Of a DNA stretch of 64,000 bases, positions 40,816-62,947 are shown in pieces; positions within the stretch are counted from its first letter, which is position 1; each line of letters opens with the position of its first letter. The notes below the pieces were generated by a model. It had not been told where the DNA came from and made no database searches. It worked only from the letters and a program-made list of their open reading frames with translations. A program made the position numbers and the translations under genes. The DNA comes from an uncultured Erysipelotrichaceae bacterium. GTDB lineage: Bacteria > Bacillota_I > Bacilli_A > RF39 > UBA660. The stretch is from the NCBI GenBank assembly GCA_902788735.1, contig CADALJ010000001.1, forward strand, positions 4,005 to 68,004, read 5' to 3'.

Positions 40816-40945
40816 AATCTCACCTCACTTTTGTAAACAAGATAATTCTATCAAAAAATAAAGAAAAATGCAAACATTTTATATAAAAAAACATATTTCT
40901 ACAAAATAAACTAATATTTAGAATTATATTAATCATGGTGATTAT

Positions 40946-42116: not shown

Positions 42117-42172
42117 TTTGAAAATAAAGGCTATTTATGATATAATTGATATATCTGTGAGGGGGATATCTT

Positions 42173-43513: not shown

Positions 43514-43523
43514 TAGTTCTTTT

Positions 43524-44387: not shown

Positions 44388-44399
44388 AAATTCTCCTTT

Positions 44400-44618
44400 T
44401 TATTTATCTTTTTTTGGTACTGGATCATATATGTTTTTACTTAATGGGTTACATCTCATAATTCTTTTAATTCCCATATAAGTTCCTTTAAATGATCCAT
44501 ATTCTTTAATTGCTTCTTTAGTATACTCTGAACAAGTAGGAATAAACCTACATTGTTTGTGTGAAGAAAATGGAATTTTTTGATATAAATTGATTAGTGA
44601 AATAAGTATCCATTTCAT
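44400..44618 (-). CDS. yidD: membrane protein insertion efficiency factor YidD
   Basis: CRFIPTCSEY and GIKRIMRCNP motifs. Confidence 0.8.
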   Translation of the reverse strand: MKWILISLINLYQKIPFSSHKQCRFIPTCSEYTKEAIKEYGSFKGTYMGIKRIMRCNPLSKNIYDPVPKKDK

Positions 44619-44697
44619 ATTATCACCAAATTAATTTTACTATTATTCATCTTTTTTTTCAAGACTAATAATGTTATAATGAAAGAGGTGAGACAAA

Positions 44698-45221
44698 TGG
44701 AATTAATAAAAGAAACAGATTTACGTAATGAAATTAATAATATTATATTAAAAGATGAACAAAAACTATTAAAGATGTATTACGCAGGTAATGGAGATTT
44801 ATATATGTCTATGAGTGATGGAAAAAGACTAGATAGAGAATATGGTGGATCTATTTTCATGGATATAAGAGAAGAAGATGGTAGTATATATGACGCTACA
44901 TATAATCTATATAGTAGAATTATGGATGAAAATAAAATTAATCCTAGAAATATAATAGATGAAGATAATAATGTAGTATGGTTAGATGATGATAGACAAG
45001 AAAATGAAGCAGATAAATTTATGATTCAAAATTATGGAGAAGTAATAAGATTAAAATTCGTTAGAATAGGTGATAATAAATTATTTAATCGTAAAAATTC
45101 AAGATGCATTACTATTAGATTTAGTATGGATGGTTCTAGATACCATGAATATGCTAATGAATTTGCTACATTTTATAGAGATTTAAATGAAATAGAAAAA
45201 GGAAAACAATATAGAAAATAG
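44698..45221 (+). CDS. hypothetical protein (174 aa)
   Basis: AGAGGTGA RBS then ATG at 44698; no motif. Confidence 0.5.
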
Positions 45222-45229
45222 GTGATACT

Positions 45230-45889
45230 ATGGAAGAATTATTTAATAAATTAGGAATAACTCCTAAAGATATTAATCTTTATAAAACAGCTTTTTCTCA
45301 TAGTTCATATGTTAATGAACATAAAGTAAAAAATGATTATGAAAGATTAGAGTTTGTTGGAGATGCAGTACTAGACTTAGTAATTGCAGATTATTTATAT
45401 AATAAATATAGGGAAACTGAAGGAGAAATGACTAAGATAAGAGCTAGTTATGTATGTGAAAATGCTAACTACTGTTATTCTGAAGGGTTAGGTCTAGAAA
45501 ACTATATATTAGTAGGTAATGGAGAAAAAGAATCAGGACTAAAGAAAGCAATTGTTGCTGATATATTTGAAGCATTAATGGGAGCAATATATATAGATTT
45601 AGGATATGCTACTGCAAGAAATACTATATTAAGAATAATAGTTCCATATATAGAAGATCCTAATGTAAATTTCTTTAGTGATTATAAATCTTCACTTCAA
45701 GAAATGGTGCAAACTTCTCAAAAGTCACTTGAATATAACTTAGTAAATGAAGAAGGACCTGCTCATGACAAAAGATTTACTGTAGAAGTAAAAATAGATG
45801 ATATAGTATATGGAGTAGGTAATGGAACTACTAAAAAAGAAGCAGAGCAAGAAGCAGCTAAAGTTGCTTTAGAAAAAATGGCTAAATAA
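45230..45889 (+). CDS. rnc: ribonuclease III
   Basis: RNase III signature ERLEFVGDAVLDLV plus a C-terminal dsRBD. Confidence 0.9.
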   Translation: MEELFNKLGITPKDINLYKTAFSHSSYVNEHKVKNDYERLEFVGDAVLDLVIADYLYNKYRETEGEMTKIRASYVCENANYCYSEGLGLENYILVGNGEKESGLKKAIVADIFEALMGAIYIDLGYATARNTILRIIVPYIEDPNVNFFSDYKSSLQEMVQTSQKSLEYNLVNEEGPAHDKRFTVEVKIDDIVYGVGNGTTKKEAEQEAAKVALEKMAK

Positions 45890-45967
45890 TAATTAGTCTT
45901 TTTTTTTATAAAGAAATATGTTATAATGATAATGCTGTTTATCCGTAATATTATGAAAGGAGAAATT

Positions 45968-47620
45968 ATGAGTAAAATTAAAATATTCGCTTTAGGCGGA
46001 TTAAATGAAAATGGAAAGAATATGTATGTTGTCAATGTAGACAATGACATATTTGTATTTGATGCCGGGTTAAAATATGATAATGATATTAATTTAGGAA
46101 TTGATTATATAATTCCAAACTTTGATTATTTAATTAAAAATAGAAAGAATGTAAAAGGTATATTTTTAACACATGGACATGAAGGTAATATGGGAGCTAT
46201 TCCTGATATATTAGAAAAATTACCTGAAATACCAGTATATGGTACTAAATTAACTTTAGAAATAGTAAAAAGAGATATGACTCTTGAATCTATTAAGAAA
46301 AGTCATTTAATAGAAATAAAACCCCATGTAAAACAATCTTTTGGAAAAAATTCAATATTTCCAATTAGTGTAACACATTCTATTCCAGATGCAGTATGTT
46401 ATGTATTATATACTGAAGATGGAGCAATAGTTTATACAGGAGATTTCACATTTGATTCTACAATGACAGGATCATATAAAACGGATATAGGTAAACTTGC
46501 TTATGTAGGAAAACAAGGTGTTTTATGTTTAATGGCTGAATCATTCTATGCAGATAGAACAGGTCATACATCACCTAATAATAGATGTGAAGCATTTATA
46601 AGAGAAGTATTAAACAAAAGTAAAAATAGAATAATAGCTACTATTACAACAGCACATTTCTATCGTATACAAGAAATATTTAATGAAGTAAGTACAACAC
46701 ACAGAAAAATAGTAATTATGGGTAAACAACTACAAGAAACAATAAATTCAGCAATTGCTGAAGGATACTTACAAATTAATAAAGAAAAGATAGGAACATT
46801 AGCTGACTTAGAAAGTGATAATGTATTAGTATTAATCTCAGATGAAAAAGAAAAGCCATTTGCTAACTTAGAAAGAATTATAAAAGGATTTGATAAGTTT
46901 ATTAGTATTAAAGATACTGATACAATATTTATTACTGAACCAAGTTATCCAGGTATTGAAAGACGTCTAGCCTTACTTATGGATGAAATAGCTATGCTAG
47001 GAGCAGATGCAGTATGCTTATCTCAAAAGAAGCATTTACTACATCATGCATCAGGAGAAGACTTAATGTTATTAATTGACTTGATGCAACCTAAATACTA
47101 TTTCCCAGTAAAAGGTGAATATAGAAATCAATACGTTAATGCAGAAATAGCAGAATCAGTTGGAATACCTAAAGAAAATATTATTTTAAAACTAAATGGT
47201 GATGTTTTTGAAATGGATAATGGAGAACAAGTTGAAACATTTGAACATATTGATACAGACCAAATCTTAATAGATGGAAATAATAGTGGAGATATTGGTG
47301 ATTTAGTATTAAAAGATAGAGAAATGTTAGCTTCAAATGGTATTGTTATTATTAGTTGTACTCTTGATAAAGAAACTAAAAAGATTCTAGGTGGACCAGA
47401 AATTCTAACACGTGGATTTATCTATGTTAAAGAAAGCCAAGATCTATTAGAAGAAACTAAGAGATTAGCAAGAGAAGTTATAGAAGAAAATATAGAAGAA
47501 AATCAAAAAAGAATTGATTACTCTAAAATAAAAAATGATGTTAGAGATGTTCTAGGTAAATTCTTCTATCAAGAAACAGAAGCTAAACCAATGGTTATCA
47601 CAGTAATACAAGAAGTATAA
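45968..47620 (+). CDS. rnj: ribonuclease J (metallo-beta-lactamase/beta-CASP)
   Basis: HGHEGNMGA motif and beta-CASP domains. ATG at 45968 behind GAAAGGAGA preferred over the longer ORF-track start. Confidence 0.9.
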   Translation: MSKIKIFALGGLNENGKNMYVVNVDNDIFVFDAGLKYDNDINLGIDYIIPNFDYLIKNRKNVKGIFLTHGHEGNMGAIPDILEKLPEIPVYGTKLTLEIVKRDMTLESIKKSHLIEIKPHVKQSFGKNSIFPISVTHSIPDAVCYVLYTEDGAIVYTGDFTFDSTMTGSYKTDIGKLAYVGKQGVLCLMAESFYADRTGHTSPNNRCEAFIREVLNKSKNRIIATITTAHFYRIQEIFNEVSTTHRKIVIMGKQLQETINSAIAEGYLQINKEKIGTLADLESDNVLVLISDEKEKPFANLERIIKGFDKFISIKDTDTIFITEPSYPGIERRLALLMDEIAMLGADAVCLSQKKHLLHHASGEDLMLLIDLMQPKYYFPVKGEYRNQYVNAEIAESVGIPKENIILKLNGDVFEMDNGEQVETFEHIDTDQILIDGNNSGDIGDLVLKDREMLASNGIVIISCTLDKETKKILGGPEILTRGFIYVKESQDLLEETKRLAREVIEENIEENQKRIDYSKIKNDVRDVLGKFFYQETEAKPMVITVIQEV

Positions 47621-47638: not shown

Positions 47639-47715
47639 GTATCCGTAGCTCAGTAGGATAGAGCAGTCGCCTCCTAAGCGACAGGTCATGAGTTCAATTC
47701 TCGTCGGGTACACCA
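47639..47715 (+). tRNA. tRNA-Arg (anticodon CCT)
   Basis: Cloverleaf folded by hand: acceptor GTATCCG/CGGGTAC, D-arm GCTC..GAGC, anticodon loop CU-CCU-AA, T-arm ATGAG-TTCAATT-CTCGT, encoded CCA. Confidence 0.85.
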
Positions 47716-47724
47716 TTATAAAGA

Positions 47725-47757
47725 TAAAAGATTATGAAATTTATAATCTTTTTTTGC
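47725..47757 (+). terminator. intrinsic terminator after tRNA-Arg
   Basis: Hairpin aaagattat-gaaattt-ataatcttt followed by T6. Confidence 0.6.
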
Positions 47758-48109
47758 TGTATTAAAAATAATTGATTGTTAGAGCCTATTTTAGTAAGAC
47801 CTGAACGTAATGACTAGATATGAGATAATATCAGGTCATAGAAGAGTGTATGTGTTAAATAGAATAGGTATTAAAAATTTAAATGTATAATAAAAAAAAT
47901 ATCAAATGATCAAGCAATTATAGAGATGGTAGATTTCAATATTAAAAGAGAACGTATCTTCCAAAAATAAATATGTATCTCAACAATATATTTTAGTTAA
48001 TATAAATATCCAAAAACAGTAAAGAAGAGTATAATGTACACAACGTGGCTACTAGCCTATGTATTTTATGTAATATATAAATCAAAATATATATAAGCTG
48101 GTGGTTTAT

Positions 48110-48379
48110 ATGATAGAATATGCAAAAGAAGGTAAAAATGTAAATGAGTATATGATTCATGATGATGAATATTATTACAAAAGACTGAGAAAAAATATTA
48201 GATGTTATAGAAAAACAAAGCAATTGACACAACAAGAATTGGCGGACATTGCAGAATTAACAAGAGAATACATTTGCGATATAGAAAATGAAAAGCGTAA
48301 TAAACATCCATCTATTGCGGTAATTGGCAGAATAGCAGATGCACTAGAAGTTGATATAATTATGCTATTTAAAGAATAA
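48110..48379 (+). CDS. XRE-family helix-turn-helix transcriptional regulator (89 aa)
   Basis: HTH QLTQQELADIAELTREYICDIENEKRNKHPSIAVIGRIADAL. GGTGG RBS then ATG at 48110. Confidence 0.65.
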   Translation: MIEYAKEGKNVNEYMIHDDEYYYKRLRKNIRCYRKTKQLTQQELADIAELTREYICDIENEKRNKHPSIAVIGRIADALEVDIIMLFKE

Positions 48380-48719
48380 TTAGGTAGTCTTGTAAAAAGA
48401 TGATGAGAAAAGTGGTGAATAATTAAAAAGTACTATAGCATCATATTTGACTCAATAAAATATGCAAAAAAATTGCATATTTTTTTTATGAAAAAAGCAA
48501 ACGTACATATATAGTTTACTTGCCAAAAAATGTCAAAATTAGTCATAAAAATACGGAAAAAGGAAAAAATACTACCATTCGCGGAAAAAGTGTAGAATTT
48601 TACTACTTATATTATATAATATGTCCCCAAAAAAAATTTATATACATTAAAACGACCAAAATAGCCAAAAAATAGAAAGTATATAAATTAGTGTAGGGGG
48701 AAATGAAAATATACATAAT

Positions 48720-49205
48720 TTGTATATTAATAAAGTTATGAAAACCAGAAATAGAATGATTTTTGAATCAATTAATGAAATAGAAGAAGATCCTGATAAG
48801 TTTAATAGCTATTACACAAAATTATATGAAGTATGTAATGATTTACCATACGACTTTAGATCTAGATTAAGATATTTGCGTGAATGTATGGGATATACAC
48901 GTGAAAAATTAGAAGAAAAATCAAATATTAGTGTTCAAACAATAAAACAAATAGAAATAAATTCAAATAGAGGGTACACGGTAAGTACCATTTTAGCATT
49001 ATGCATTGGTATGAACTTACCTCCAGAACTTAGCTTTGAATTGATGAGGAAAAGTGATTATAACATTGAAACCAGTAGTTCAATATGTAATTGTGTGTAT
49101 TGTTATGTATTAAGAAATATGTATGATCTTAGTATAAATGATGTAAATAATTTTTTAAATAATATTGGTATAGAACCTTTAACAGGTGATAATTTAAGGA
49201 AATAA
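48720..49205 (+). CDS. XRE-like HTH domain protein (161 aa)
   Basis: Central HTH-like MGYTREKLEEKSNISVQTIKQIE..VSTILALCIGMNL. Start uncertain (48720 or 48738). Confidence 0.5.
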   Translation: MYINKVMKTRNRMIFESINEIEEDPDKFNSYYTKLYEVCNDLPYDFRSRLRYLRECMGYTREKLEEKSNISVQTIKQIEINSNRGYTVSTILALCIGMNLPPELSFELMRKSDYNIETSSSICNCVYCYVLRNMYDLSINDVNNFLNNIGIEPLTGDNLRK

Positions 49206-49363
49206 CAGTTGTTCCATTTCTATAATTAAAAAAGGTATCTTTGGCGTACTTTTAGTTAGTAATTAACTATGAGAAATTGATTATAGAAATGGAGGTGAAT
49301 CGATATTATTTAAAAAGTTATTTCTTTATGTACATATTAATAATTAATATAAAAGGAAATTAT

Positions 49364-49675
49364 ATGAATTATATTATTAATTACTCAGCATTAATAACAA
49401 TTATATGTACAATTGCAACATCATTGATTGCTTTTCTATCGTATAAAAATAATAATAAGTCCAAAAATAATCAAGATATTACTGAAAGAGTAAAACGAGA
49501 TACTGAAATATCTACAAAATTAGATATGATGATAACGAGTACATCAGAAGTAAAAGTTGAAATGAAAAGTTTAAATAATAAATTTGATGAGATGAGTGAA
49601 CGAATCGCAAAATGCGAGGAAAGCACTAAGCAAGCTCATGATAGAATTGACAAAATAGAGTTCAGATTAAATTAG
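49364..49675 (+). CDS. small membrane protein with C-terminal coiled coil (lysis-cassette accessory, XhlA-like architecture)
   Basis: AAAGGAA RBS then ATG at 49364; one N-terminal TM then a heptad-rich tail. The ORF-track start at 49277 lacks an RBS. Confidence 0.45.
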   Translation: MNYIINYSALITIICTIATSLIAFLSYKNNNKSKNNQDITERVKRDTEISTKLDMMITSTSEVKVEMKSLNNKFDEMSERIAKCEESTKQAHDRIDKIEFRLN

Positions 49676-49686
49676 AGGTGATGATT

Positions 49687-49899
49687 ATGAAAAAATTCAA
49701 AAAGGGATTAATTAAGTTTTTAAAAAAGCCAAAAGTTGAAAGGGCAATAAAGACTTTTATTGAAGCATTTTCATCATATGTTGCCGTTAAGATTGTAACA
49801 GTTGATGTAACAGATAAAACAGCATTATATGGATTAATTGCCGGAGCTATTGGTAGTGCTATTTCAGTAATTCTTAATGTAAGAACTACGGAGAAGTAA
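49687..49899 (+). CDS. holin-like small membrane protein (70 aa)
   Basis: Amphipathic segment plus a C-terminal TM ALYGLIAGAIGSAISVIL; charged ends; immediately upstream of, and overlapping, the peptidoglycan-hydrolase gene. Confidence 0.45.
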   Translation: MKKFKKGLIKFLKKPKVERAIKTFIEAFSSYVAVKIVTVDVTDKTALYGLIAGAIGSAISVILNVRTTEK

Positions 49900-49900
49900 T

Positions 49901-50842
49901 ATGTTTAAGGGTCAAAAATCAATTAAAGATGGTATAGAAAACTTTCTATGCCCATTTACTGATATGTATATTTCACAAGGTTCAAATGGTGCATATTCAC
50001 ATAAGGGAATATTAGCCCATGATGTTAGAGGACATGTTTCAGGTGTAAGATATCCTTATTTCGCCCCATGTACATGTAAATGTATTAGGACTTACCCTGT
50101 TACAGGACAAGTAATGTGGCAATCAACAAATAAAGTTAGATTTGCTAATGGTAGAATTGACTATGCCACTTTTATGACAGCCCATGATGACACTATGGAT
50201 GCTAAAGTTGGAATGATTGTTCCACAAGGAAATCAATTAGGTAATATGGGAAGAAAAGGTTATTCAAATGTAACTGGTATCCATTGCCACATACAAATAA
50301 GTCAGTCTGCTGATACATCATGGTATAAGAATTCTTATGGTAACTATAAATTTAATAATGAATATGAACCTGAAGATTGTTATTTTGTAGACAATACAAA
50401 TATTATATATGCTTGCAATATTACAAATTGGAAAAAAACAGATAAAATTTCAGTAGACGAAAATATGGAGAAAGAAGTTGTAGATCAAATATTACACGTA
50501 GGTAGTAAAGTAAAATTTGATGGAATATTTAAGGTTGATAGTATAAGACTTCCACTTTCTACAAATCATTTTGGTAATACACAGTTGACCGGTGTAATCC
50601 CAGATGATTATAAAAATGGAAGATGTAGAGATTATCATTGGATTCCTTTAGATGATTGGACTGAAGTTGACCAATATGGAAATTCTCAGGAACAAGATCA
50701 AATTGTCTATAGCGGAGTATCATACGTGTTGAATAAAAATATATACACAGTAATTGGGATTGATATTCCTACCGATTCAGCAAAACTACGAATTAATGGT
50801 CATGATGTTTGGGTTTTTTGTACATATTTATATGAGGTATAA
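49901..50842 (+). CDS. M23-family (lysostaphin/LytM-like) peptidoglycan endopeptidase with C-terminal binding domain; candidate endolysin
   Basis: TAHDD..VGMIVPQGNQLGNMGRKGYSNVTGIHCHIQ aligns to the M23 signature GxxVxxGQxIGxxGxTGxSTGPHLHFE. About 150-aa C-terminal extension. Confidence 0.55.
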   Translation: MFKGQKSIKDGIENFLCPFTDMYISQGSNGAYSHKGILAHDVRGHVSGVRYPYFAPCTCKCIRTYPVTGQVMWQSTNKVRFANGRIDYATFMTAHDDTMDAKVGMIVPQGNQLGNMGRKGYSNVTGIHCHIQISQSADTSWYKNSYGNYKFNNEYEPEDCYFVDNTNIIYACNITNWKKTDKISVDENMEKEVVDQILHVGSKVKFDGIFKVDSIRLPLSTNHFGNTQLTGVIPDDYKNGRCRDYHWIPLDDWTEVDQYGNSQEQDQIVYSGVSYVLNKNIYTVIGIDIPTDSAKLRINGHDVWVFCTYLYEV

Positions 50843-50978
50843 AGAATAAAATAATTAATAAATGTACGTAAGAAATAAATAAAAAATTGCACAGCAATAT
50901 AAATTAGTTTAATATTACTAATTCAACAATTTACCCACAATAAAAATATAAAATAAATAAAGAAAGAAGGAATTAAAA

Positions 50979-51584
50979 ATGTATGATTATATAATTGATG
51001 CTTTTACAAGAGATGGAAATAATACAAATCTTGAAGTAGACAATTTAAATGTAGGATGTATTACATCCAAAAATAATAATTTTGATTTAGATAGTAATGG
51101 TAATTTAACAGTTAATTCAATTACTACTAATAGCATTACAGGGCAGGCACTTGCCAATCTGTTATATCCGATTGGTTCGATTTATATGTCTGTTGATTCA
51201 ACTAGCCCAGCAACATTATTTGGAGGAACATGGCAAAGATTTGCAAATGGACGTGTATTAGTTGGAATAGATGAAAACCAAACTGAGTTTAATACAGTAA
51301 ATAAAACAGGTGGAAGTAAAGACATGCAGAGACATACACATACTCAAAGCAGCTGTACAAATCCTGGCGATCACTCGCACAACACATGGAATTATTTCAC
51401 ATTCCATCATTCAAGTGGTGGTGTAACTACTTCATGCACAGGAGAACCATCAGATGGAAGAGGAAATCCTACTCAAGGAGCTGGAGGACACACTCATACT
51501 ATCACGTTGAATGAAACAGGAACTGGTACAAGCGGAAACTTACAACCATATGTATGTGTATACATTTGGCAAAGAGTAAGTTAG
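50979..51584 (+). CDS. phage tail-collar domain protein (tail fibre-like)
   Basis: LYPIGSIYMSVDSTSPATLFGGTWQR is the hallmark of the phage tail-collar domain. Gly/Thr/His-rich C-terminus. Ends 12 nt before the RHS gene. Confidence 0.65.
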   Translation: MYDYIIDAFTRDGNNTNLEVDNLNVGCITSKNNNFDLDSNGNLTVNSITTNSITGQALANLLYPIGSIYMSVDSTSPATLFGGTWQRFANGRVLVGIDENQTEFNTVNKTGGSKDMQRHTHTQSSCTNPGDHSHNTWNYFTFHHSSGGVTTSCTGEPSDGRGNPTQGAGGHTHTITLNETGTGTSGNLQPYVCVYIWQRVS

Positions 51585-51596
51585 GAGGTTTAAATA

Positions 51597-54500
51597 ATGG
51601 ATCGAATAGAATTAATTGATAAAAGAAAACCTCGTGAAAAACACTTTTTACAAAAAGATGGTACGATTCGTGCTGAAATATTCAATGAAGATGTTCATTA
51701 TCTAAAAGATGGAAAATATGAAGAAATTGATAATACATTAATTGAAAAGAAAGGTTCGATAGTAAATAAAAGTAATGATTATAGAGTCGAATTCAAAGAT
51801 AATTCACATGATTCATTAATGAAAATATCAAAAAATGATTTATTTATTGATTTTAAAATTAAAAATAATAAAGGTATAGAATCAAAAGTAGTAGAAAGAA
51901 AAGTGTCAGAAGAAAAGAAAAATGTTATTTTATCTAAATTAGATGATGATGTTTCAATAGAATATCAAGCATTATCTAATAAAGTAAAAGAAACAATAAT
52001 ATTACAAAGCAACAAATATAGCGAGCTTAGTTTTGAATTAAATACAAATTTAAAACTAAAATCTGAGAATGATGAAATATACGCTATTGATGCTGAAAAT
52101 AGAACTATCTTTAAAATTGAAAAACCATTTATGGTAGATGCAAATGGTGATAAGAATAATAGAATCTATTATTCGCTTGCAGAATATGATGATGCATATA
52201 TATTAAAATTAACATTAGACGATGAATGGCTAATGAATCCAGAAAGAAAATATCCAATATATATAGACCCAACAATATCAAATATAAGTAATAATAATAT
52301 AACACTATATGATACATATATATATCCAGGAGATTCACAAGATGATAGAGATAGTAAACCATATATAAAAGCAGGTACTGAAAGAATAAATGGTCAAGAT
52401 AGAGTAAATAGATCTCTAATCAAATTTGACTTACCAGAAATTGGAACAGGTAGTCATATAGTAAATGCAACACTAATACTTGTACCATATTATGAAGCTT
52501 TTCATGAAGAAGAATCTACATTATCGCGTACAGTAGAAGTAAGAAGAATTACAGAAAGTTGGAATCCATCTACTGCAACATGGTCAACTATGAATGATAA
52601 ATATGATTCAAGAGTTGAAAGTATAACTTTCTTTGAGAGATCTCATATAATAAATAATGTGGTTTATTATGGAACGACTTATTTAGATGTCACAAATTTA
52701 GTAAGAAATTGGTATAGTGGAGTGGCAAACCATGGACTAATGATAAAATCTTGCAATGAAGAATATTATGATGACAATTTTCCAATGTTTTTTTCCACTA
52801 ACAATAATGTCACAGGTGATCCAAAACCAATTATTTCAATTTCTTATGAAAATCAAAATGGTCTAGAAGAGTATTATGATTATAAAAGAATTAGCTGCGT
52901 AGACAGTGATACATTTATCAATACTTATAGCGGCAATATGACATCAGTATTTACAGTTGGAAAAACATTAGGACAGAGATTCCCAGCTAAAGCTACACTC
53001 GTATATAATACTAATGATGCTATTTTAAATAATTCAAGTTCATTTGGAAAAGGATTCAAATTAAACTATGAACAAAAAATAATAGAGGAAAATCAAGATT
53101 TATTATCTTTTATTGATGCTGATGGTACAACCCATTATTTTCATAAAGGAGGAAATGGGCTTAATTCAGATAGAATATTTGATAATACCAAGTATTATGA
53201 TGAAGATGGTTTAAATTTAATAATATCCATAGGACAAAATACATGTACAATGGAAGATTTAGATGGAAATCAAAAGACTTTTGAAAAATATAACAATATA
53301 TATTATTTAAAAAGTATAAAAGATATTAATAATAATAGTGTAACTGTTACATTAGATAATAATCAAAGAATAACAAAAATAAAGGATATTAATAATCAAG
53401 AAATAAACATTACATATAATAATTCAAGTGTTGTATTTAGTTGCACTGCTATGACAGTAACGGCATATAAAACTAACAATCTAATAACATCTATTCAAAC
53501 AATTAATGGTACAACAAATATCACTTATAACAACCTTGATTTAATAGAGATTATTGAAGATCCTAGTGGTACAAAACATAAATATGAGTATTATCAAACA
53601 ATACCGCATAGAATTTCTGAAATAACAATGTATGGTATCAATGATGGAATAGGTGACACAAATACATTTGAATATTATAGCAATAGTACATCAGTTACAA
53701 ATGGACAGGGATTAGTGGAAGTAATAACATTTAATGATAGAGGAAATGCTATTGAAAGAAATTATCAAAATAGTATCAATGATTTATCAGGAGCTTATTC
53801 ATCAACATGCAAATATGGTAATGGAGATAAAACAAATAGATTATTATCTAGCAATATTCCAATAAAGTATACAAAAAACTACATAGGAAATAGTAGTTTT
53901 GAAATGGATACAAACCCATTTATAATAGAAAATGGAATAGTTGCTAGTTTTGATACAAATAGTGCACATTCAGGTAATAGAAGTTTAAAATTAGAAACTA
54001 CATATAATAATAAAAAAGCATCCTCTGGATTTGCGCTAACCGGAAATAAACATTATACATTTAGTGGTTATTTTAAAGGAACAGGAACAGCAAGCATAAC
54101 ACTTTATTATATTCAACATGGAACTCAAGAAATAATAAGTAGTACTCAAGATATTGAACTTTCTAGTGATTTTGAAAGAGAAGATGTAACTTTATATTAT
54201 GGCAATGATGCTAACAGTGATTTAAATGTAATAATTGAATTATCAAACGGAACTTTATATGTCGATGATGTTCAATTAGAAGAAGGTGAGGTGGCAAATT
54301 ATTATAATATAATGGATAATGCGGACTTTAGTAATGGACTATCAGATTGGACATTATATGCGGGTAGTCAAATAGATCCACAAGATCCATATGATTATAT
54401 GAGTGTTGTAACTATAAATTCAAATAATGATACAGCACTTAAAATTGAAATGGATCCAGTAGTGCCGACAGCATTAGTAAAAAAATATGATATTAATGGG

Positions 54501-57500
54501 AAAACTGGTGATGTATATACTATATCATTTTGGTATAAAAATGGTAGCGTAACACCATATATGCCAAATGTAGGTAGTGCAGTAAGTATTTTTTACCAAC
54601 CATATAATAGTGATAATGGTCATTGTATAGTTTCAGAAATTATACCAAATACTGGTGATGAAACATGGCATTATTTTATTCATAAAGAAGTAGCAATTGA
54701 AGATTTCAAATCCATAACTATCAACTTCTCACAAACAGGTACAGCAAATGATTTTTATTTAACTAATATAGCTTTTTATAAAGATGTAACAAGAGGAGAA
54801 TTTGACTATGATAGTAATGGAAATTTAACTAGAATTAGTAATCAATCAAATAATACTAGTCAATTAAGTTATAATACTGATAGTCAGTTGAAAGATATAG
54901 TAAGTCCATCTGGACAAAAGGTAAAATATGAGTATGATAAAAATAAAAAGAGTAGATTAATTAGTTCTATATCAGCTGGCGGTATTGTAACTGAAAGCAA
55001 ATATGACAGTAATGGTAATATATGCAATATTAAAATATCAAATAAGACAATTCAAAATATTGATTCATCTGATTTATATACGATAAGAAATAATGGTACA
55101 GATAAGTATATAAAAGCAGAATTAAATGCGGTTTTATTAGAAACTAATGATTGTAGTAACACAAAATGGAAAATTCAAGAACAAAATAATGGTAAATATA
55201 AAATTATTTATAATGCATGTCCACAATATTCTGTATCTTATTTAAATGAAAATATAATTCTTTCTAATGAAAATATCAATAACCTATTTGAATTAGAACA
55301 AAATGATAATGGTAGTTTTCATATAAAATATATAGAAGAGACAGGTGAAGGTACAGCAATTAGATATTTAAAAGCAAATAATCAATTGATTGAAACAACT
55401 TTATATAGTGGAGAATCTTCAGATATTGAATTTTATATTGAAAAAATTCCAGATCAATTTATTGAAACTGATACAGAGTATACAACTGATGGAAAATATG
55501 AAGAAAAAAATATTAATAGTGATTTAACTGAGGAAGAATATGAATTTAATCCAAATACAGGTTTATTAACTAAATTAATCAATGTAAACGGAATAGAAAC
55601 TACATATTCATATAATTTGATGAATAAGATAAGTGGAATTGCATGTCAAAATAGAACAGTATCCTATAACTACAACACATCTGGATTGTTAAGTTCAGTA
55701 GCTGTTGGAAATAAAAATTATAATTTTGAATATGATGAATTCTTAAATAATACAAAAGTTAAAATAAACAATAACACATTAACCCAAAGTACATATTCAA
55801 ATGGAAAACTGACATCTACCACATATTCAAATGGCTCTAGCATAAACTATTATTATGATACATTAGACAGATTAGAACGTATTCAAAAAGACAATAGTGA
55901 AAACTATTACTTTAAATATAATAACAATGGTAATATTGCAAAAATAATTTCAAATAATGAACAAATAAAATGCTATTATGATGCAAGTAATAGAATCATA
56001 AAGTATAAAAACAATGATTTTAAAATAGATTATGATTATGATATAGATGACAGAAATATTTCAAAAAATTATAAATTAGAAAATCAAAGTCACACTAATG
56101 AATTTGAATTTAATAATGATAATTTAACAAAATTGACTGTAGATAATATAGATTTTAATTATGAATATGATAGTTTAGGCAGAATTACAAATAAAAAAAT
56201 CAATAATAATAATTATATGAATTATGAATATCTTTCAAATGGAAAGAGAACTTCTAACGAAATCGTTAAGATGTATTTAAATGGTGATGAGTATGAATAT
56301 GTTTATGATAAATTAGGAAATATCAATGAAGTTCATAAGAATAATATTCTAATAAATAAGTATTATTATGATGATTTTAGTCAGCTTACTATGAGTGAAG
56401 ATTATGTTGAACATAAGAAATATGAATATACTTATGATACTAACAGTAATTTAATTGAAAAAAAGGTAATTAATACATTAAATAACACTGTAATAGAAGA
56501 TATAATGCTTGGTTATAATAATTCAAGTTGGGAAGATCAGTTATCAACATATAATGGGACAACAATCACTTATGATAGTTTGGGAAATATTACAAGTTAT
56601 GGTAATAATGAATTGTTCACTTGGAACAATGGTAGAGAACTTACTCAATATAGTAATACAAATCAAAATATTACTGCTAATTATGCATATGATATGTCTG
56701 GTATAAGATGTTCAAAAAATATAAATAACATTTTAACAACATATTATACAGAAAATGGTAAAGTAATATATGAAAAAAGAAATAACGATATTATATATTA
56801 TTTATATGATATTCAAGGAATAGCAGGATTAATATATAATGGCAATATATATTACTATGAGAAAAATTTATTGGGAGATATTATAGGTATTTTAAATAGC
56901 CAATATCAAAAAATTGTATCATATCAATATGATGATTGGGGAAAAATTCTTTCAATAAAAGATTCAACTGGACAGGATATTATAAATCCAACTAATATAG
57001 GAATAATAAATCCATTTAGATATAGAGGATACTATTACGATAGTGAAACGGGATTATATTATTTGAATAGTAGATATTATAATCCAGAATGGTGTAGATT
57101 TATTTCCGCAGATGCGTTAATTGCTTCAAATCAAGATTTCCCATCATTTAATTTATATGTATATGCAAGTAATAACCCTATTATGAATACTGATATTTCT
57201 GGATATGGAATACTTAGTTCAATATCAAAAACAGTAAAGAAGGTCGTTAAAAAAGTATCAAAGGCAATAGGGTCTGTTGTAAATTCAGTAGTAAATACGT
57301 TTAAAAAAATAGTAAAAGTAAGTACTACCCAAACACAACACGTAGAAAAATCTTCACAAAATTGGGGTGTAGCAATTTATAGCAAGGGTACTATACAATC
57401 TGCAACAATAGAAACAAATCGCAAAGAAAACAGTATAATAGAAGCAAACCATGAAATTGGTGGTGGTGACTCAATTGGTTTCAATAATCAATTATTTGCG

Positions 57501-57794
57501 ACTTCTATAGCAGTAGATACAACAGGAGTAGATTTTTCTGTAAAAGGAAATACAGGATTTATAGCAAATCAAGAAATTATGTTTGGTATATATGGTGGAG
57601 ATGTATATATCCAACAAAACAGTATGGCAGAGGGTTCAGGTGTTAGTACAGGAACATATAAAAGATTAAGTGTAAATGGAATAGTTGCTGTTATTGTTGT
57701 GTCAGTAGCGACAGTAGTATTATGTAATTTATCAACAACGGCAGGAAAAGGAGTCGCAGCACCAATATTTGCTCCAGCCGTTTCACTTGCATAA
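51597..57794 (+). CDS. RHS/YD-repeat polymorphic toxin (2065 aa) with no N-terminal signal peptide and a C-terminal hydrophobic toxin domain
   Basis: N-terminal DNRLRE-like domain. Many YD repeats (YEYDSLGRI, YYYDTLDRL, YTYDTNSNL). RHS core FRYRGYYYDSETGLYYLNSRYYNPEWCRFISADALI..NLYVYASNNP. Internal CBM-like and ricin-B-like inserts. C-terminal about 195 aa is Lys-rich amphipathic, then Gly-rich, then a hydrophobic helix. Strong AGGAGG RBS. Confidence 0.9.
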   Translation: MDRIELIDKRKPREKHFLQKDGTIRAEIFNEDVHYLKDGKYEEIDNTLIEKKGSIVNKSNDYRVEFKDNSHDSLMKISKNDLFIDFKIKNNKGIESKVVERKVSEEKKNVILSKLDDDVSIEYQALSNKVKETIILQSNKYSELSFELNTNLKLKSENDEIYAIDAENRTIFKIEKPFMVDANGDKNNRIYYSLAEYDDAYILKLTLDDEWLMNPERKYPIYIDPTISNISNNNITLYDTYIYPGDSQDDRDSKPYIKAGTERINGQDRVNRSLIKFDLPEIGTGSHIVNATLILVPYYEAFHEEESTLSRTVEVRRITESWNPSTATWSTMNDKYDSRVESITFFERSHIINNVVYYGTTYLDVTNLVRNWYSGVANHGLMIKSCNEEYYDDNFPMFFSTNNNVTGDPKPIISISYENQNGLEEYYDYKRISCVDSDTFINTYSGNMTSVFTVGKTLGQRFPAKATLVYNTNDAILNNSSSFGKGFKLNYEQKIIEENQDLLSFIDADGTTHYFHKGGNGLNSDRIFDNTKYYDEDGLNLIISIGQNTCTMEDLDGNQKTFEKYNNIYYLKSIKDINNNSVTVTLDNNQRITKIKDINNQEINITYNNSSVVFSCTAMTVTAYKTNNLITSIQTINGTTNITYNNLDLIEIIEDPSGTKHKYEYYQTIPHRISEITMYGINDGIGDTNTFEYYSNSTSVTNGQGLVEVITFNDRGNAIERNYQNSINDLSGAYSSTCKYGNGDKTNRLLSSNIPIKYTKNYIGNSSFEMDTNPFIIENGIVASFDTNSAHSGNRSLKLETTYNNKKASSGFALTGNKHYTFSGYFKGTGTASITLYYIQHGTQEIISSTQDIELSSDFEREDVTLYYGNDANSDLNVIIELSNGTLYVDDVQLEEGEVANYYNIMDNADFSNGLSDWTLYAGSQIDPQDPYDYMSVVTINSNNDTALKIEMDPVVPTALVKKYDINGKTGDVYTISFWYKNGSVTPYMPNVGSAVSIFYQPYNSDNGHCIVSEIIPNTGDETWHYFIHKEVAIEDFKSITINFSQTGTANDFYLTNIAFYKDVTRGEFDYDSNGNLTRISNQSNNTSQLSYNTDSQLKDIVSPSGQKVKYEYDKNKKSRLISSISAGGIVTESKYDSNGNICNIKISNKTIQNIDSSDLYTIRNNGTDKYIKAELNAVLLETNDCSNTKWKIQEQNNGKYKIIYNACPQYSVSYLNENIILSNENINNLFELEQNDNGSFHIKYIEETGEGTAIRYLKANNQLIETTLYSGESSDIEFYIEKIPDQFIETDTEYTTDGKYEEKNINSDLTEEEYEFNPNTGLLTKLINVNGIETTYSYNLMNKISGIACQNRTVSYNYNTSGLLSSVAVGNKNYNFEYDEFLNNTKVKINNNTLTQSTYSNGKLTSTTYSNGSSINYYYDTLDRLERIQKDNSENYYFKYNNNGNIAKIISNNEQIKCYYDASNRIIKYKNNDFKIDYDYDIDDRNISKNYKLENQSHTNEFEFNNDNLTKLTVDNIDFNYEYDSLGRITNKKINNNNYMNYEYLSNGKRTSNEIVKMYLNGDEYEYVYDKLGNINEVHKNNILINKYYYDDFSQLTMSEDYVEHKKYEYTYDTNSNLIEKKVINTLNNTVIEDIMLGYNNSSWEDQLSTYNGTTITYDSLGNITSYGNNELFTWNNGRELTQYSNTNQNITANYAYDMSGIRCSKNINNILTTYYTENGKVIYEKRNNDIIYYLYDIQGIAGLIYNGNIYYYEKNLLGDIIGILNSQYQKIVSYQYDDWGKILSIKDSTGQDIINPTNIGIINPFRYRGYYYDSETGLYYLNSRYYNPEWCRFISADALIASNQDFPSFNLYVYASNNPIMNTDISGYGILSSISKTVKKVVKKVSKAIGSVVNSVVNTFKKIVKVSTTQTQHVEKSSQNWGVAIYSKGTIQSATIETNRKENSIIEANHEIGGGDSIGFNNQLFATSIAVDTTGVDFSVKGNTGFIANQEIMFGIYGGDVYIQQNSMAEGSGVSTGTYKRLSVNGIVAVIVVSVATVVLCNLSTTAGKGVAAPIFAPAVSLA

Positions 57795-57803
57795 CAAAAA
57801 AAT

Positions 57804-57831
57804 AAAAAGCACAAAATATTGTGCTTTTTAA
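57804..57831 (+). terminator. intrinsic terminator after the RHS gene
   Basis: Hairpin aaagcacaa-aatat-tgtgcttttt. Confidence 0.6.
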
Positions 57832-57863
57832 TATATATATGATAAAATTAATTTGGTGATAGT

Positions 57864-58547
57864 ATGAAAATTAAAAAAAATATGAATATACTATTTTGGA
57901 TAACATTAGTTTCATTTGTAGGATGGTTTGTATCTTGGGGATATTTAACTAAAGATCTTCCGGTTGAATTAGCATTTCTTCCGCTAGAATGGGCTAATTG
58001 GATATGGATGATAATCCCGATATATACTATATATTATTCATATAAGAATAGAAAAGTAGGTAAAGCTATTAGAAATATAATAGCTGCAGTTATATTGATT
58101 TTGGTATTAATTCCAGGATTAATTCCAGATAATAAAGTAAAATACAATAATATACATAAATATGAAGAAATACTTAATATAAATTTTCCAAAAACTGGAA
58201 TTTTAATAAATGAAATAGGACTAGATATAGATGACAATAAAGACGATATTAGAATAGAATTAGCATATTATAAAAAAAGTATTGACATTAGCAAATTAGA
58301 AAACCAAATAAAAAAGTCAAAACAATGGACTAAAAAAGAAAATGTAGGCAAAAAATTATATAAAATACTTCCAGATATAGTTAGATTTGATGATGAACAA
58401 TATATATTAGTATACAATAATGATACTAAAGAATATAACACACCTTTAGAGGAAAATAAAATATATGACATATATACCGCTATATATTATAAAAAATATA
58501 GAGCAATATATATATATCATTACCAATATAATAATAAAGAAGAATAA
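57864..58547 (+). CDS. multi-pass membrane protein, candidate cognate immunity protein of the RHS C-terminal toxin
   Basis: 3 N-terminal TM segments plus a soluble Lys/Tyr-rich domain, located immediately 3' of the toxin. Confidence 0.45.
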   Translation: MKIKKNMNILFWITLVSFVGWFVSWGYLTKDLPVELAFLPLEWANWIWMIIPIYTIYYSYKNRKVGKAIRNIIAAVILILVLIPGLIPDNKVKYNNIHKYEEILNINFPKTGILINEIGLDIDDNKDDIRIELAYYKKSIDISKLENQIKKSKQWTKKENVGKKLYKILPDIVRFDDEQYILVYNNDTKEYNTPLEENKIYDIYTAIYYKKYRAIYIYHYQYNNKEE

Positions 58548-58671
58548 AGATGAGAAAACGAATGCTATATAATTAAAGTTATATAATACTCGTTTTTTTT
58601 GGATAAACAAAAATTATACAATTAGTAGAAATTTATTTAATTTGCTTTAAAAAAGAAATGAACGCTATCAA

Positions 58672-59432: not shown

Positions 59433-60002
59433 ATGAAAAAAATATTAGGAATAATTAGTATGGCACTAGTTTTAGTATTAGTAACTGGTTGTAGTTTAAT
59501 ACCAGGACAAAAAACAAATGCTAATGGAAATGTATTAGAAAAACCAGCTAAAGGAAATTGTAATGTATTTGAATGTATTAAAAAGATAAATCTTACAGAT
59601 GATTTAGATAAAGTAACAAAAGTTATGGGTTTTGAAGGTAATTTATTAAATGAAGGGTCTACATATAAAACATATAAATGGGTAATTAATCATGATAAAA
59701 ATGAAGCAGTACAAGTAGCATTTAATGCTAATAGTACAGTAATAAGTATTACATTTAGTGATGAAGATATTAAAAATCCTAAAGTAGATTTTTCAAAATA
59801 TGAAGAAATTAAAACTGCATTAAACAATAAAGAAAAATTAACATATAATGATATTAAAACTAAATTTAAAGCTGATGGAACGTTAATTGAAAAATCTACA
59901 TTATCAACTAGATATAGATGGGTTAATGAAAATGGTAGATATATTAATGCTACATTCAGTAATTCTACTGGTGCTTGTACAATGATAATGGGAAGAATTT
60001 AA
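59433..60002 (+). CDS. lipoprotein (paralog A)
   Basis: Lipobox LVTGC. Shares GNCNVFECIKKI..VMGFEG..YKW with the next gene. Confidence 0.6.
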   Translation: MKKILGIISMALVLVLVTGCSLIPGQKTNANGNVLEKPAKGNCNVFECIKKINLTDDLDKVTKVMGFEGNLLNEGSTYKTYKWVINHDKNEAVQVAFNANSTVISITFSDEDIKNPKVDFSKYEEIKTALNNKEKLTYNDIKTKFKADGTLIEKSTLSTRYRWVNENGRYINATFSNSTGACTMIMGRI

Positions 60003-60051: not shown

Positions 60052-60582
60052 GTGAAGTATATGAAAAAAGTAGTAAGTTTATTTTTATTTTTATCAGTTA
60101 TATTATTAATAACTGGATGTAGTACAAAGAAAGAAGAAAAAGAAGAAAAATCAAAAGGAAAATGTAAAATAGAAGAATGTATTAAATTGATAGGGCTAAA
60201 TGATAATTTAGAAAAAGTAAATGAAATAGTAGGTTTTGAAGGAACTAAAGAAGATAATACTTATTCTTGGAAATTAACTAGTAAACAAAAACTAGAGATA
60301 GTGTTTAGTGATACTAATAGTATTAAGATTAAAGTATTAGATGAAGAAATAAAGAATAATAAAACAAACTTTTCTAAATACTCTAAATTAGAAAAAGATT
60401 TAAAAGATGGAAAAGAAATAAAAATAGAGGATCTAAATAAAGCATTTAAATCAAATGGAGTATTAATAGAAAAAACATCTACTGAAGAAATATATAAATG
60501 GGTAGATAAAGAAGATTCTTACCTAGAAGCAACTATAAATGCTACTAATGGTAAATGTTATAAAATAAATGGACTAATATAA
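60052..60582 (+). CDS. lipoprotein (paralog B)
   Basis: Lipobox LITGC. KCKIEECIKLI..IVGFEG..YKW is paralogous to the previous gene. Confidence 0.6.
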   Translation: MKYMKKVVSLFLFLSVILLITGCSTKKEEKEEKSKGKCKIEECIKLIGLNDNLEKVNEIVGFEGTKEDNTYSWKLTSKQKLEIVFSDTNSIKIKVLDEEIKNNKTNFSKYSKLEKDLKDGKEIKIEDLNKAFKSNGVLIEKTSTEEIYKWVDKEDSYLEATINATNGKCYKINGLI

Positions 60583-60645
60583 AAAATAAGATATTGATTA
60601 ATATCTTATTTTTATTTATAATAACTAATTATGGGAGGTTCAGCA

Positions 60646-62399
60646 TGAAAAATAATCAAGTCGCAACAGAAGTTATTAAAATACGTTGGTTAGATGCATA
60701 TATATTTGTATGCCATAATGTAGTAACAGGTAATTATGATGAAGAACAAGGAATATTTACTGATATTTATGGCGAAGAATATTGTAATATGATGTCTGGT
60801 GATGCACTTACCACAGATGCTAAAGTAGTCTATAATATAATGGACATGGATAAATTAAAAAAATTAGATGTTAATAAAAATAAAAAAGTAAATGATATTA
60901 TTAGTGAGTATTATAAAGAAGTAGCAACAAAAGCATATGTTATAGGATATACAGATGAATATACTCCATATGTATATGCAATTAAATTAGATTTTTTAAA
61001 AGAAGAAGCAAATAGAATAGAATCAAATGGTTCAAAAAATGTAATTAATCCAAAATCTACAGAAAAATTAGAACAATTAATATTAGATACAATAGATGGT
61101 AAATATACAAAAGAACAATTAAAAGAAATGATAGAAGTTTTAGAAACTACCAAAGATACCATTGATAATACAATTGGTACAATGGAAACTAAAATAAGTG
61201 CTATAGATAGCAATATGAGTTTTAAAGATTATTTAAATGAACAAATAGAAAAAGAAAAAAATATAACAAAACCAGCAACATCTACAAACACTATTACTGA
61301 TATTGCATTAAAGGTAGCAAATGATCGTAAAAAAGAAGAAGAAAAGAAAAAAAATCCTCTTAAAGATCAAACTATCAAAAGAAAAGAATTAAAATATGAT
61401 ATAGAAGAAATATATAATAAAGTAAAAGAAACATTAATTGCTCAAGATGAACCATTAAAAAAAGTAATTACAGAAATAGTAAGAAAAGACATGGATCCTA
61501 GATTAAAAAGACAAGGTATTTTTATTACAGGTGCAACAGGAACAGGTAAAACAGAAATGATGCGTCAACTTGCTATGCAATTAAATAAAAAACTTATTAT
61601 AGTCGATTCATCTCAATTAACTATTGAAGGATATGTAGGAAAAGATATAGAAAAAGAATTATATGATTTATATGAAGCTTGTAATAAAAATATAGAAAAA
61701 ACAGAAGAAGCGATAGTTTTCTTTGATGAAATAGATAAAAAAGGAACAGAAAAACATGATGATCCAAACGGAAGAGGAGTACTAAACTTATTACTTAAGT
61801 TCATTGAAGGAACAACATATGATGCAGCTCCTAATAATAAATCAACAACTATAGTTCCGATAAATACATCTAATATGACAGTAATTTTTGGAGGGGCATT
61901 TACTGATGTATATAATCATTCTATGACAAGCAATATAGGTTTTTCTACAGAACCACAATCTAATAAGAAATATCATGTACCAGAACTAGAAGATTTTGAA
62001 AAATATGGAATGATGCCAAGAGAATTTTTAGGAAGAGTATTACATGTACCATTAAATCCTTTAAGTTTAAATGATTTAAAAAGAATACTATTAGAATCAA
62101 AAGAATCAGCAATAAAAATTCATGAAAAATTATTTAGAGAGTTAGGAGTACATATAATCTTTACTGATCAATTTATAAATAAAGTAGCAGAAAAAGCATA
62201 TTTAAGTAAAACAGGAGCAAGAGGATTAAATGATACGGTAAATGTAGCGACAAGTGAAGCATATGCTAAAGTATATATGGATTGTTATAAAAACTTAAAT
62301 AGTTATAAGGAAGTATTATTAACAGATAAAACAGTAGAGGATAGTTCTAACTATCAATTAGTAAATAGAAGAATAATTAGAAATAAAAATAAGAAGTAA
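60646..62399 (+). CDS. ClpX-like AAA+ ATPase paralog with novel about-300-aa N-terminal domain (no zinc-binding domain) and a retained IGF-type loop
   Basis: Walker A GATGTGKTE, Walker B VFFDEIDK, sensor/arginine finger KTGARGLN; NIGFSTEP aligns to the ClpX IGF loop GIGFGATV. GGGAGG RBS then ATG at 60646. Confidence 0.7.
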
Positions 62400-62401
62400 T
62401 T

Positions 62402-62827
62402 TTACTTCTTATTTTTATTCTTTTCTTCAACTTGTTTAATTAGTTTTTTCCATTCCTTTTTAGGCATGTCATAAGAATATTCTAATTTTTCAGGTTCATA
62501 ATAAATACATTCTGTTTCCTTTTTTATAGAATTTAAAATTTTACTTGCTTCATCATCATTAACTCTGCCAGATAGAGCATTCATAACTTTAAGCATGTTT
62601 TTTTGAACTATTTCGTCACAGTATTTAACTGCTTCCTCTTTAGTTTTTAATATACAACCATCATCTATTTTTATATTTTTATTATCTTTATCTTTATAAA
62701 AATAACCTTTCTTATTAGTATCTTTAGAAACTTTTCTATATACAGGTCTATTTCTAAGCAATACAAAATCATCAGCATAAAGCTTTTTTAATGCACCCTT
62801 ATATATAGTTACACTTCCTATTGCCAT
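62402..62827 (-). CDS. hypothetical protein (141 aa)
   Basis: GGAGGG RBS then ATG (MAIGSVTIY..); no motif. Confidence 0.5.
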   Translation of the reverse strand: MAIGSVTIYKGALKKLYADDFVLLRNRPVYRKVSKDTNKKGYFYKDKDNKNIKIDDGCILKTKEEAVKYCDEIVQKNMLKVMNALSGRVNDDEASKILNSIKKETECIYYEPEKLEYSYDMPKKEWKKLIKQVEEKNKNKK

Positions 62828-62947
62828 CAACTTTTCCCTCCAATGTAACCATATCATAACACCAATTTATTAGAGAGTAAATAAAAATAAATAAAAAAAT
62901 GTTGCATTTTTAAAAGTATTTTGATATTATTAATATGCAACTTATAT

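Follow-up and report, generated by a model that had tools for sequence, protein, structure and literature searches.

Substrate choice by ClpX, one of the best-understood degradation motors, is defined by the zinc-binding domain (ZBD) at its N-terminus and by its RKH loops, and AAA+ unfoldases with swapped N-domains are a familiar theme. The locus described here raises the question of what a ClpX-type motor is for when it has neither of these elements. The gene (60645–62399, plus strand, stop codon included) encodes a protein of 584 amino acids (aa) and lies in a stretch of 64,000 nucleotides (nt) from an uncultured Erysipelotrichaceae bacterium (GenBank assembly GCA_902788735.1, contig CADALJ010000001.1, positions 4,005 to 68,004), which we call the window; coordinates refer to the window unless another contig is named. 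We consider that the gene probably belongs to a previously unnamed clade of ClpX-family unfoldases, which docks ClpP through the IGF loop and selects substrates through a new N-domain. The family retains the motor and the ClpP-docking loop yet exchanges both recognition elements, and its N-domain has no detectable relative. It would represent a natural experiment in re-targeting an AAA+ protease, in poorly known gut bacteria with relatives that have lost ClpXP entirely, and it provides a new domain family to name as well as an unusual core proteolysis gene evolving at conflict-like rates. A literature search on ClpX in RF39 and Tenericutes returned no prior description of this variant.

The AAA+ Module Is of the ClpX Type

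The ClpX-type AAA+ module, comprising the large and small subdomains, spans aa 250–575 (61392–62369, plus strand, as are all features of the protein given below). The first-pass annotation had recognized it as a ClpX module, correctly, but had placed it in the C-terminal 300 aa, an extent that is revised here to about residues 250–575. Pfam matched AAA_2 (residues 292–465, 1.5e-18), AAA, and ClpB_D2-small, and the best NCBIfam models were the two ClpX equivalogs (TIGR00382 / PRK05342), aligned over residues 224–574. A phmmer search against all PDB sequences ranked ClpX first (~1e-34). We modeled the full protein with AlphaFold2 on 99 homologues (predicted local distance difference test (pLDDT) of 84.5) and the N-terminal part alone (pLDDT 86). 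With the full model as the query, the top 50 Foldseek matches in the PDB were all ClpX chains (E ~1e-23; template modeling (TM) score on the target, 0.71–0.82). The protein has the single AAA+ module of the ClpX/HslU clade in common with E. coli ClpX/ClpXP (PDB 6WRF, 6PO1, 8E91). HslU (ClpY), the sister AAA+ clade, gave a weaker sequence match (1e-18), and its model TIGR00390 scored 65.7 bits against a cut-off of 362, over residues 286–352 only, within the Walker region. HslU carries an I-domain insert, has no IGF loop, and docks HslV via its C-terminus, whereas the family lacks the I-domain.

Aligned by MAFFT with canonical ClpX from four organisms (E. coli, two low-GC gut organisms, and one bacterium of the candidate phyla radiation (CPR)), the family has the IGF column, the pore-1 GYVG, Walker A and B, the arginine finger, and sensor II in register with these proteins. 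In Walker A (GATGTGKT, aa 296–303, 61530–61553), G296, G299, G301, K302, and T303 are invariant in 99 sequences, the set to which invariance refers throughout. The pore-1 loop (GYVG, aa 329–332, 61629–61640; family consensus GY[VT]G) has invariant G329 and G332, with Y330 conserved in at least 90% of the set, and Walker B (FFDEIDKK, aa 359–366, 61719–61742) has invariant D361, D364, K365, and K366. The arginine finger R464 (62034–62036), in EFLGR (460–464), aligned to ClpX EFIGR, and the sensor II G-A-R (aa 524–526, 62214–62222), in KTGARGLN (522–529), aligned to ClpX KTGARGL; both are invariant. All motifs quoted in the first-pass annotation (Walker A/B, pore loop, sensor II, and NIGF) were thus recovered in the 584-aa protein. 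The assignment to a ClpX-family unfoldase is supported by the first rank of ClpX in profile, sequence, and structural comparisons alike, and by motifs that are invariant in 99 homologues.

The IGF tripeptide (aa 431–433 in NIGF, 430–433; 61935–61943) occupies the position at which ClpX docks ClpP. Neither G432 nor F433 varies in the 99 sequences, and both are conserved at 90% or more in 68 representatives at ≤50% identity, and the loop that bears them (430–440) is flexible in the AlphaFold2 model (pLDDT < 50). Its earlier equation with the docking loop of ClpX withstood the multiple alignment, in which the loop keeps the canonical IGF column, conserved family-wide. In ClpXP, the IGF docks in ClpP pockets (PMC7547079). 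Yeast is without CLPP, and its ClpX orthologue Mcx1 is without the IGF (PMC10886707). As Mcx1 lost the IGF with CLPP, the invariance of the G-F within a loop that is itself disordered speaks for a ClpP partner. Mitochondrial CLPX and Mcx1 are themselves ClpX-family members with altered N-terminal regions and degron specificity, evidence that the ClpX family can accommodate remodeling, and PDB 9DVY was among the top structural matches; the family described here differs from Mcx1 in keeping the G-F, and the N-domains are unrelated.

In comparison with canonical ClpX, the family has no Cys4 ZBD, evolves much faster, and has a pore-2 loop, following Walker B, that is 5 residues shorter in the MAFFT alignment. 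The RKH loop is also missing: the canonical PPQGGRKHPQQEF corresponds to a variable segment, 3–4 residues shorter and without RKH. Identity to every canonical ClpX is 28–37%, no closer to the ClpX of low-GC gut Firmicutes than to that of E. coli, whereas canonical ClpX proteins, including that of the CPR bacterium, share 48–68% among themselves. The family is a deep or strongly accelerated clade and does not resemble a lineage newly split from Firmicute ClpX. We class the protein as a ClpX-family variant and not as ClpX proper, since its score is below the curated cut-off and it has neither a ZBD nor an RKH loop.

We also noted a second, more divergent ClpX-like sub-branch on two other contigs (L079, 5375–6931; L081, 7343–8941). 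Identity is 41% between its two members, ~30% with the main family, and 33–37% with canonical ClpX; their N-terminal signature is degenerate, and the G-F at the IGF position is retained.

The N-Terminal Region Contains a New Domain

The first-pass annotation proposed that the zinc-binding N-domain of ClpX had been replaced by an unrelated, Lys/Glu-rich domain of about 300 aa. The replacement was borne out; the single Lys/Glu-rich domain was not, and the region resolves into three parts. The first is a compact alpha/beta N-domain, the hallmark of the family (aa 1–127, 60645–61025; pLDDT ~85–94). It is followed by a helical hairpin or coiled-coil (aa 136–206, 61050–61262) with a conserved LExLIxDxxDGKYSxxELK motif, modeled by AlphaFold2 as helices at 136–150, 156–188, and 193–206 (pLDDT ~80–90). 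The third is a disordered, Lys/Glu-rich linker of variable length (aa 207–249, 61263–61391), which is hypervariable in the alignment and has pLDDT < 50 at residues 206–242.

No Pfam match to zf-C4_ClpX was found in the protein, and the ZBD columns were empty in the alignment with canonical ClpX. Within the N-domain, G29 is invariant and D32, F38, D40, and Y89 are nearly so; the alignment contains zero conserved Cys, which indicates that the domain is not a diverged zinc ribbon. The Pfam scan returned no relative of the N-domain, a profile of the N-terminal 208 residues matched nothing beyond coiled-coil noise among PDB sequences, and Foldseek gave no match to the N-domain in the PDB or BFVD. 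An exhaustive HMMER pass with the N-domain profile over 1.84 billion cluster representatives retrieved 213 proteins only. Nearly all are 500–600 aa in length with the domain at residues 1–200, and the short ones resemble fragments. This shared length and position indicate that the N-domain is restricted to one architecture. The N-domain is thus confidently folded, conserved, and exclusive to this architecture, in further support of a distinct ClpX-family clade with its own recognition domain. Three of the profile matches are atypically long (P0256, 1082 aa; P0245, 786 aa; P0265, 704 aa). In P0256, 5 separate stretches match profile positions 27–70, a pattern suggestive of a beta-hairpin element that is repeated within a different architecture.

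The Firmicute unfoldases ClpC, ClpE, and ClpL pair a ClpP-docking loop with an N-domain that is specific to the class and to which adaptors or substrates bind. The family follows the same logic but has one ClpX-type module and an unmatched N-domain, in contrast to the two AAA+ modules and known N-domain folds of ClpC, ClpE, and ClpL.

The Family Is a Core Gene of Uncultured Gut Bacilli

A search of 5.8 billion proteins yielded hundreds of full-length homologues (37–77% identity, 550–605 aa). The whole family amounts to ~450 proteins at E ≤ 1e-20, each on ≤20 contigs; the exact 584-aa protein is present on 9 public contigs. In a scan of one genome per GTDB species, at least 187 species carried relatives, and the 80 that we fetched of 187 were all metagenome-assembled genomes (MAGs) of uncultured Bacilli from gut, rumen, or caecum. 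Their labels include Clostridium sp. CAG:451, Mycoplasma sp. CAG:877, and Ca. Onthousia faecigallinarum, along with Mollicutes, Tenericutes, and Erysipelotrichaceae. One N-terminal signature is common to the start of every full open reading frame (ORF) among the relatives. Uncultured, low-GC, walled Bacilli of the gut and rumen, to which the clade is confined, have it as a single-copy core gene. In current annotation, named homologues appear only as 'AAA family ATPase [Bacilli bacterium]' or, wrongly, as plain 'ClpX'.

The family was not found in IMG/VR, where the viral scan gave generic ClpX-like modules only, and neither tblastn with the N-domain nor megablast with the region matched anything among INPHARED phages or PLSDB plasmids. 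A phage or plasmid origin was rejected on these empty searches, together with the fixed syntenic position. Phage ClpX-like ATPases (phrog_4339; IMG/VR loci L084–L163) share the ClpX-type module at 28–38% identity, and none carries the N-domain.

The Gene Belongs to the Chromosomal Backbone

The first-pass annotation placed the gene inside an accessory island beside a toxin locus and proposed a function specific to that island. The window is ordinary chromosome, which encodes PolA, pyruvate kinase, an aminoacyl-tRNA synthetase (aaRS), FtsA, FtsZ, two penicillin-binding proteins, SpoIIP, S20, ZnuA, RNase III, and RNase J. It is collinear with a related contig, L003, on both sides of the toxin locus: over 40552–47620, at 84–94% protein identity, and over 60052–62857, where a lipoprotein, the AAA+ protein, and the product of a convergent gene are 75%, 46%, and 35% identical, respectively. 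Between these blocks, the window has 12.4 kb where L003 has ~2 kb. The difference corresponds to a variable segment (47639–58650) that begins directly after tRNA-Arg(CCT) (47639–47715) and is absent from L003; no att-like direct repeat of the tRNA-Arg was found at the segment. It encodes a helix-turn-helix protein (48720), an M23/endolysin-like protein (49901), a Gp10_C baseplate-like protein (50979), small putative immunity genes, and an RHS/YD-repeat protein of 2065 aa (51597–57794).

The end of the RHS gene, ~2.9 kb upstream of the AAA+ gene, is what could suggest an accessory gene tied functionally to the RHS toxin locus. We regard that reading as very improbable. Homology with a near-identical strain, L287, starts at 58649, which puts the end of the variable segment at ~58.65 kb, upstream of the lipoprotein genes; L003 and L001 carry the AAA+ gene without the RHS cluster; and an identical AAA+ allele adjoins two different RHS tips (L289 vs L293). 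Being collinear with contigs that lack the RHS cluster, the gene lies outside the island, and its membership was ruled out by synteny with L003, L001, L287, and L293. It is a core gene of the backbone, found in housekeeping synteny across at least 187 species, into which the RHS cluster was inserted independently, so that neither the location nor the function proposed earlier was upheld. The recurrent neighbors, which also argue against a tie to the island, are, across ~75 loci, a convergent orphan (34 loci), a class-I aaRS ~2 kb downstream (25), a MurD-like ligase (17), and MurL (16).

In L287 and L293, the distal tip of the variable segment is replaced by genes for 273/295-aa and 206-aa (DUF488-N3a-like) proteins, a pattern typical of polymorphic toxin-tip swapping.

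The convergent orphan (62402–62827, minus strand) encodes 141 aa as called, within an ORF that reaches 62857. Its homologues abut the stop codon of the AAA+ gene on the opposite strand at 34 of the ~75 loci examined, with a median gap of 3 nt, and it is missing from ~20 loci that have room for it. Profile searches of Pfam and the PDB returned no relative. The product may act as an adaptor or a regulator, or may be a substrate. A recombinant in L287, described below, had suggested preferential co-evolution of the partner with the N-domain; a mirror-tree test showed no preference, and the idea was dropped.

The Gene Evolves Rapidly and Recombines

We computed nonsynonymous (dN) and synonymous (dS) divergence between the window and L003, using the same genome pair for all genes, and between the window and a further contig, L288. 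Against L003, the housekeeping genes for RNase J (dN 0.044, dS 0.47) and RNase III (dN 0.058, dS 0.55) are far more constrained than the AAA+ module (dN 0.345, dS 0.65), the N-domain (dN 0.50, dS 0.81), and the convergent partner (dN 0.55, dS 0.71). The AAA+ gene evolves ~8 times faster than its housekeeping neighbors, and its dN/dS is 0.5–0.8 in comparison with 0.09–0.14 for housekeeping and neighboring genes. Against L288, dN/dS is 0.79 for the N-domain, 0.50 for the module, 0.63 for the partner, and 0.14 for the adjacent lipoprotein. In this pair, dS is uniform (0.39–0.48) over the lipoprotein genes and those portions of the AAA+ gene that encode folded regions; the linker (1.46) and the partner (0.90) lie above this range, and the 17-codon C-tail (0.13) lies below it.

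Sliding nucleotide identity revealed that L287 is 97–100% identical to the window at the DNA level on both sides of the gene's distal part, and only 42–84% identical over 61249–62335 (plus strand; L287, 3990–5060). This ~1.1 kb has sharp boundaries and takes in exactly the linker and the AAA+ module, for which L287 matches L288 at 97–98% protein identity. Because L287 exchanges window-type for L288-type sequence between near-identical flanks, the interval represents an intragenic recombination tract. The window-type and L288-type alleles co-occur in metagenome ERZ1029115.

These rates (0.79, 0.50, and 0.63 for N-domain, module, and partner), the intragenic exchange of alleles between strains that co-occur, and the presence of divergent alleles in one metagenome would fit the motor of a conflict system, active in anti-phage defense, counter-defense, or toxin control, in an arms race with the convergent partner. 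We judge this unlikely. The gene has a fixed core position and is nearly universal in its lineage, unlike patchy defense islands, and an equal pace is seen in two further backbone genes nearby that are unrelated to it. PADLOC gave generic AAA matches only, the best to IetA (28.5 bits over the generic AAA region), and a single chance-level match for the convergent partner (14.5 bits). Known anti-phage defense ATPases (IetA, DolB, mad8, and TRIP13) were rejected as candidates, there being no full-length PADLOC match and no cognate partner gene. The defense or anti-defense function floated in the first-pass annotation thus gained no support, as the protein belongs to no PADLOC system and the N-domain occurs in no viral, phage, or plasmid collection searched.

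More speculatively, diversifying selection on the recognition domain, motor surface, and convergent partner of a new class of ClpP-coupled unfoldase, with alleles exchanged between co-resident strains, would make it a chromosomally fixed intracellular 'arms-race' protease. We hold the odds of this to be low; if true, such an enzyme would differ from a housekeeping ClpX in that the targets it recognizes change rapidly, examples being proteins of phages and polymorphic toxins or inhibitors of these.

Two backbone genes within the 5' collinear block (42173–43513, 446 aa; 44679–45221, 180 aa) are 33–35% identical to their L003 orthologues with dN about equal to dS (0.66/0.67 and 0.58/0.66). They sit between genes that are 88–94% identical, so that slowly and very rapidly evolving genes are interspersed in this part of the chromosome.

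ClpP in Related Genomes and the Proposed Mechanism

By analogy with ClpXP, the AAA+ protein would assemble as a hexamer, whose IGF loops would dock on ClpP heptamers, and substrates would be threaded through the GYVG pore for degradation. The N-domain and hairpin, tethered above the pore by the linker, may choose substrates or adaptors, a task that falls to the ZBD in ClpX. With the RKH loop lost and pore-2 shortened, the degron repertoire would differ from ssrA-type recognition. The gene-specific fast evolution and allele exchange suggest that the recognition targets of the protein, or the agents that target it, change rapidly.

Several points weigh against a ClpP-docking unfoldase of this kind. 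Both assembly as a hexamer and binding to ClpP are inferred, as is what the N-domain does. The protein fell far short of the cut-offs of both ClpX equivalogs (171.6 bits vs 359; 148.8 vs 370.75), and a core protease motor would not usually show a dN/dS of about 0.5. A tblastn search for clpP found none in 1.41 Mb of window and flanks, including within 10 kb of ~75 family loci, and no contig was shared between clpP-bearing and family-bearing sequences. Neither clpP nor clpX is present in the classical Tenericutes, to which these lineages are related, and only Tenericutes are missing the two genes (PMC7804408).

ClpP does occur in comparable organisms. AT-rich clpP genes were retrieved from metagenomes, and one was identical to ClpP of Clostridium sp. 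CAG:302 and 'Bacilli bacterium' MAGs. The CAG:302-type clpP lies on contigs of up to 1.36 Mb, where the gene stands alone (L284–L286); the very prevalent CAG:302 species is apparently without the family. Two low-GC contigs (L207, 10459–12353; L223, 519–2496) carry clpP followed directly by a canonical clpX of 424–426 aa. These metagenomic clpP loci indicate that ClpP, and sometimes canonical ClpX, exists in comparable low-GC gut organisms. A tmRNA to read a degradation tag was not found.

The lack of a linked clpP bears on a reading in which the protein is a ClpP-independent chaperone or remodeler like yeast Mcx1, and the G-F loop contacts another partner, for example, the convergent orphan. 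That clpP was neither linked to the family nor found in family-bearing contigs, that Tenericutes do without clpP (PMC7804408), and that a conserved, unexplained partner gene occurs at 34 loci are all in its favor. However, ClpX homologues in ClpP-less organisms lose the IGF (PMC10886707), whereas the G-F is invariant in the IGF column here, although the disordered loop around it varies; the partner is missing from ~20 loci with room for it, and the mirror-tree analysis gave no sign of special coupling. A ClpP-independent role seems improbable to us on this balance.

The same searches raise the question of whether the gene is a paralogue at all. No canonical clpX was found in the 1.41 Mb apart from two outgroup loci, and related Tenericutes lost it (PMC7804408). 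The gene could therefore be the lineage's sole ClpX, a vertical descendant in which the ZBD was replaced, serving general ClpXP proteolysis; a single-copy, core gene, syntenic across at least 187 species, with all motor and docking motifs kept, would be expected to look much like this. Such a descendant is less easily reconciled with the uniform 28–37% identity to canonical ClpX proteins, which share 48–68%, with a dN/dS of 0.5–0.8 where housekeeping neighbors have ~0.1, with the loss of the RKH loop, or with a whole family of only ~450 proteins in 5.8 billion. We regard the sole-ClpX interpretation as possible but doubtful, and slightly favor a specialized unfoldase over the general housekeeping ClpX of the lineage.

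Gene Boundaries and Neighboring Features

The frame of the AAA+ ORF opens at 60594. We chose the ATG at 60645 as the start because it is preceded by a ribosome-binding site, GGGAGG (60633–60638, plus strand), located 6 nt 5' of the ATG by direct reading of the sequence; the earlier start at 60646 was one base off. Farther upstream is a promoter-like TTGATT-17-TATAAT (60594–60622, plus strand), called from its consensus match alone (10 of 12 positions). Sites of this kind are fewer in the region than in its shuffles.

At the 3' end, a palindromic hairpin (62379–62421) contains both stop codons. It includes a 16-bp perfect A/U-rich palindrome and has a predicted RNA fold of -21.2 kcal/mol (z = -5.2), and none of 200 shuffles was equally stable. 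The hairpin is plausibly a bidirectional terminator common to the AAA+ gene and its convergent partner. Because the palindrome spans both stops, the two proteins both end in NKNKK. It also implies overlapping 3' ends of the two convergent genes.

The gene immediately upstream (60061–60582, plus strand) encodes a lipoprotein with the lipobox LITGC, 75% identical to its L003 orthologue, and is a backbone neighbor in close relatives only. A second copy lies farther upstream (59433–60002). The description of the two as tandem paralogues in the first-pass annotation is supported by a 102-nt stretch that is 73% identical between the copies (59433–60002 and 60052–60582); L003 carries a single copy. 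Of the two in the window, the one upstream is the faster evolving (dN/dS 0.40 vs 0.14).

Elsewhere in the window, three ORFs of 586, 586, and 588 aa (28593–30353, 34653–36413, and 36836–38602) look like a repeated gene module. The first of them has no Pfam match at 1e-5. ORFs of 292 aa (30442–31320 and 38652–39530) come after the first and the third, and the one at 38652 gave a short AAA-like BLAST match.

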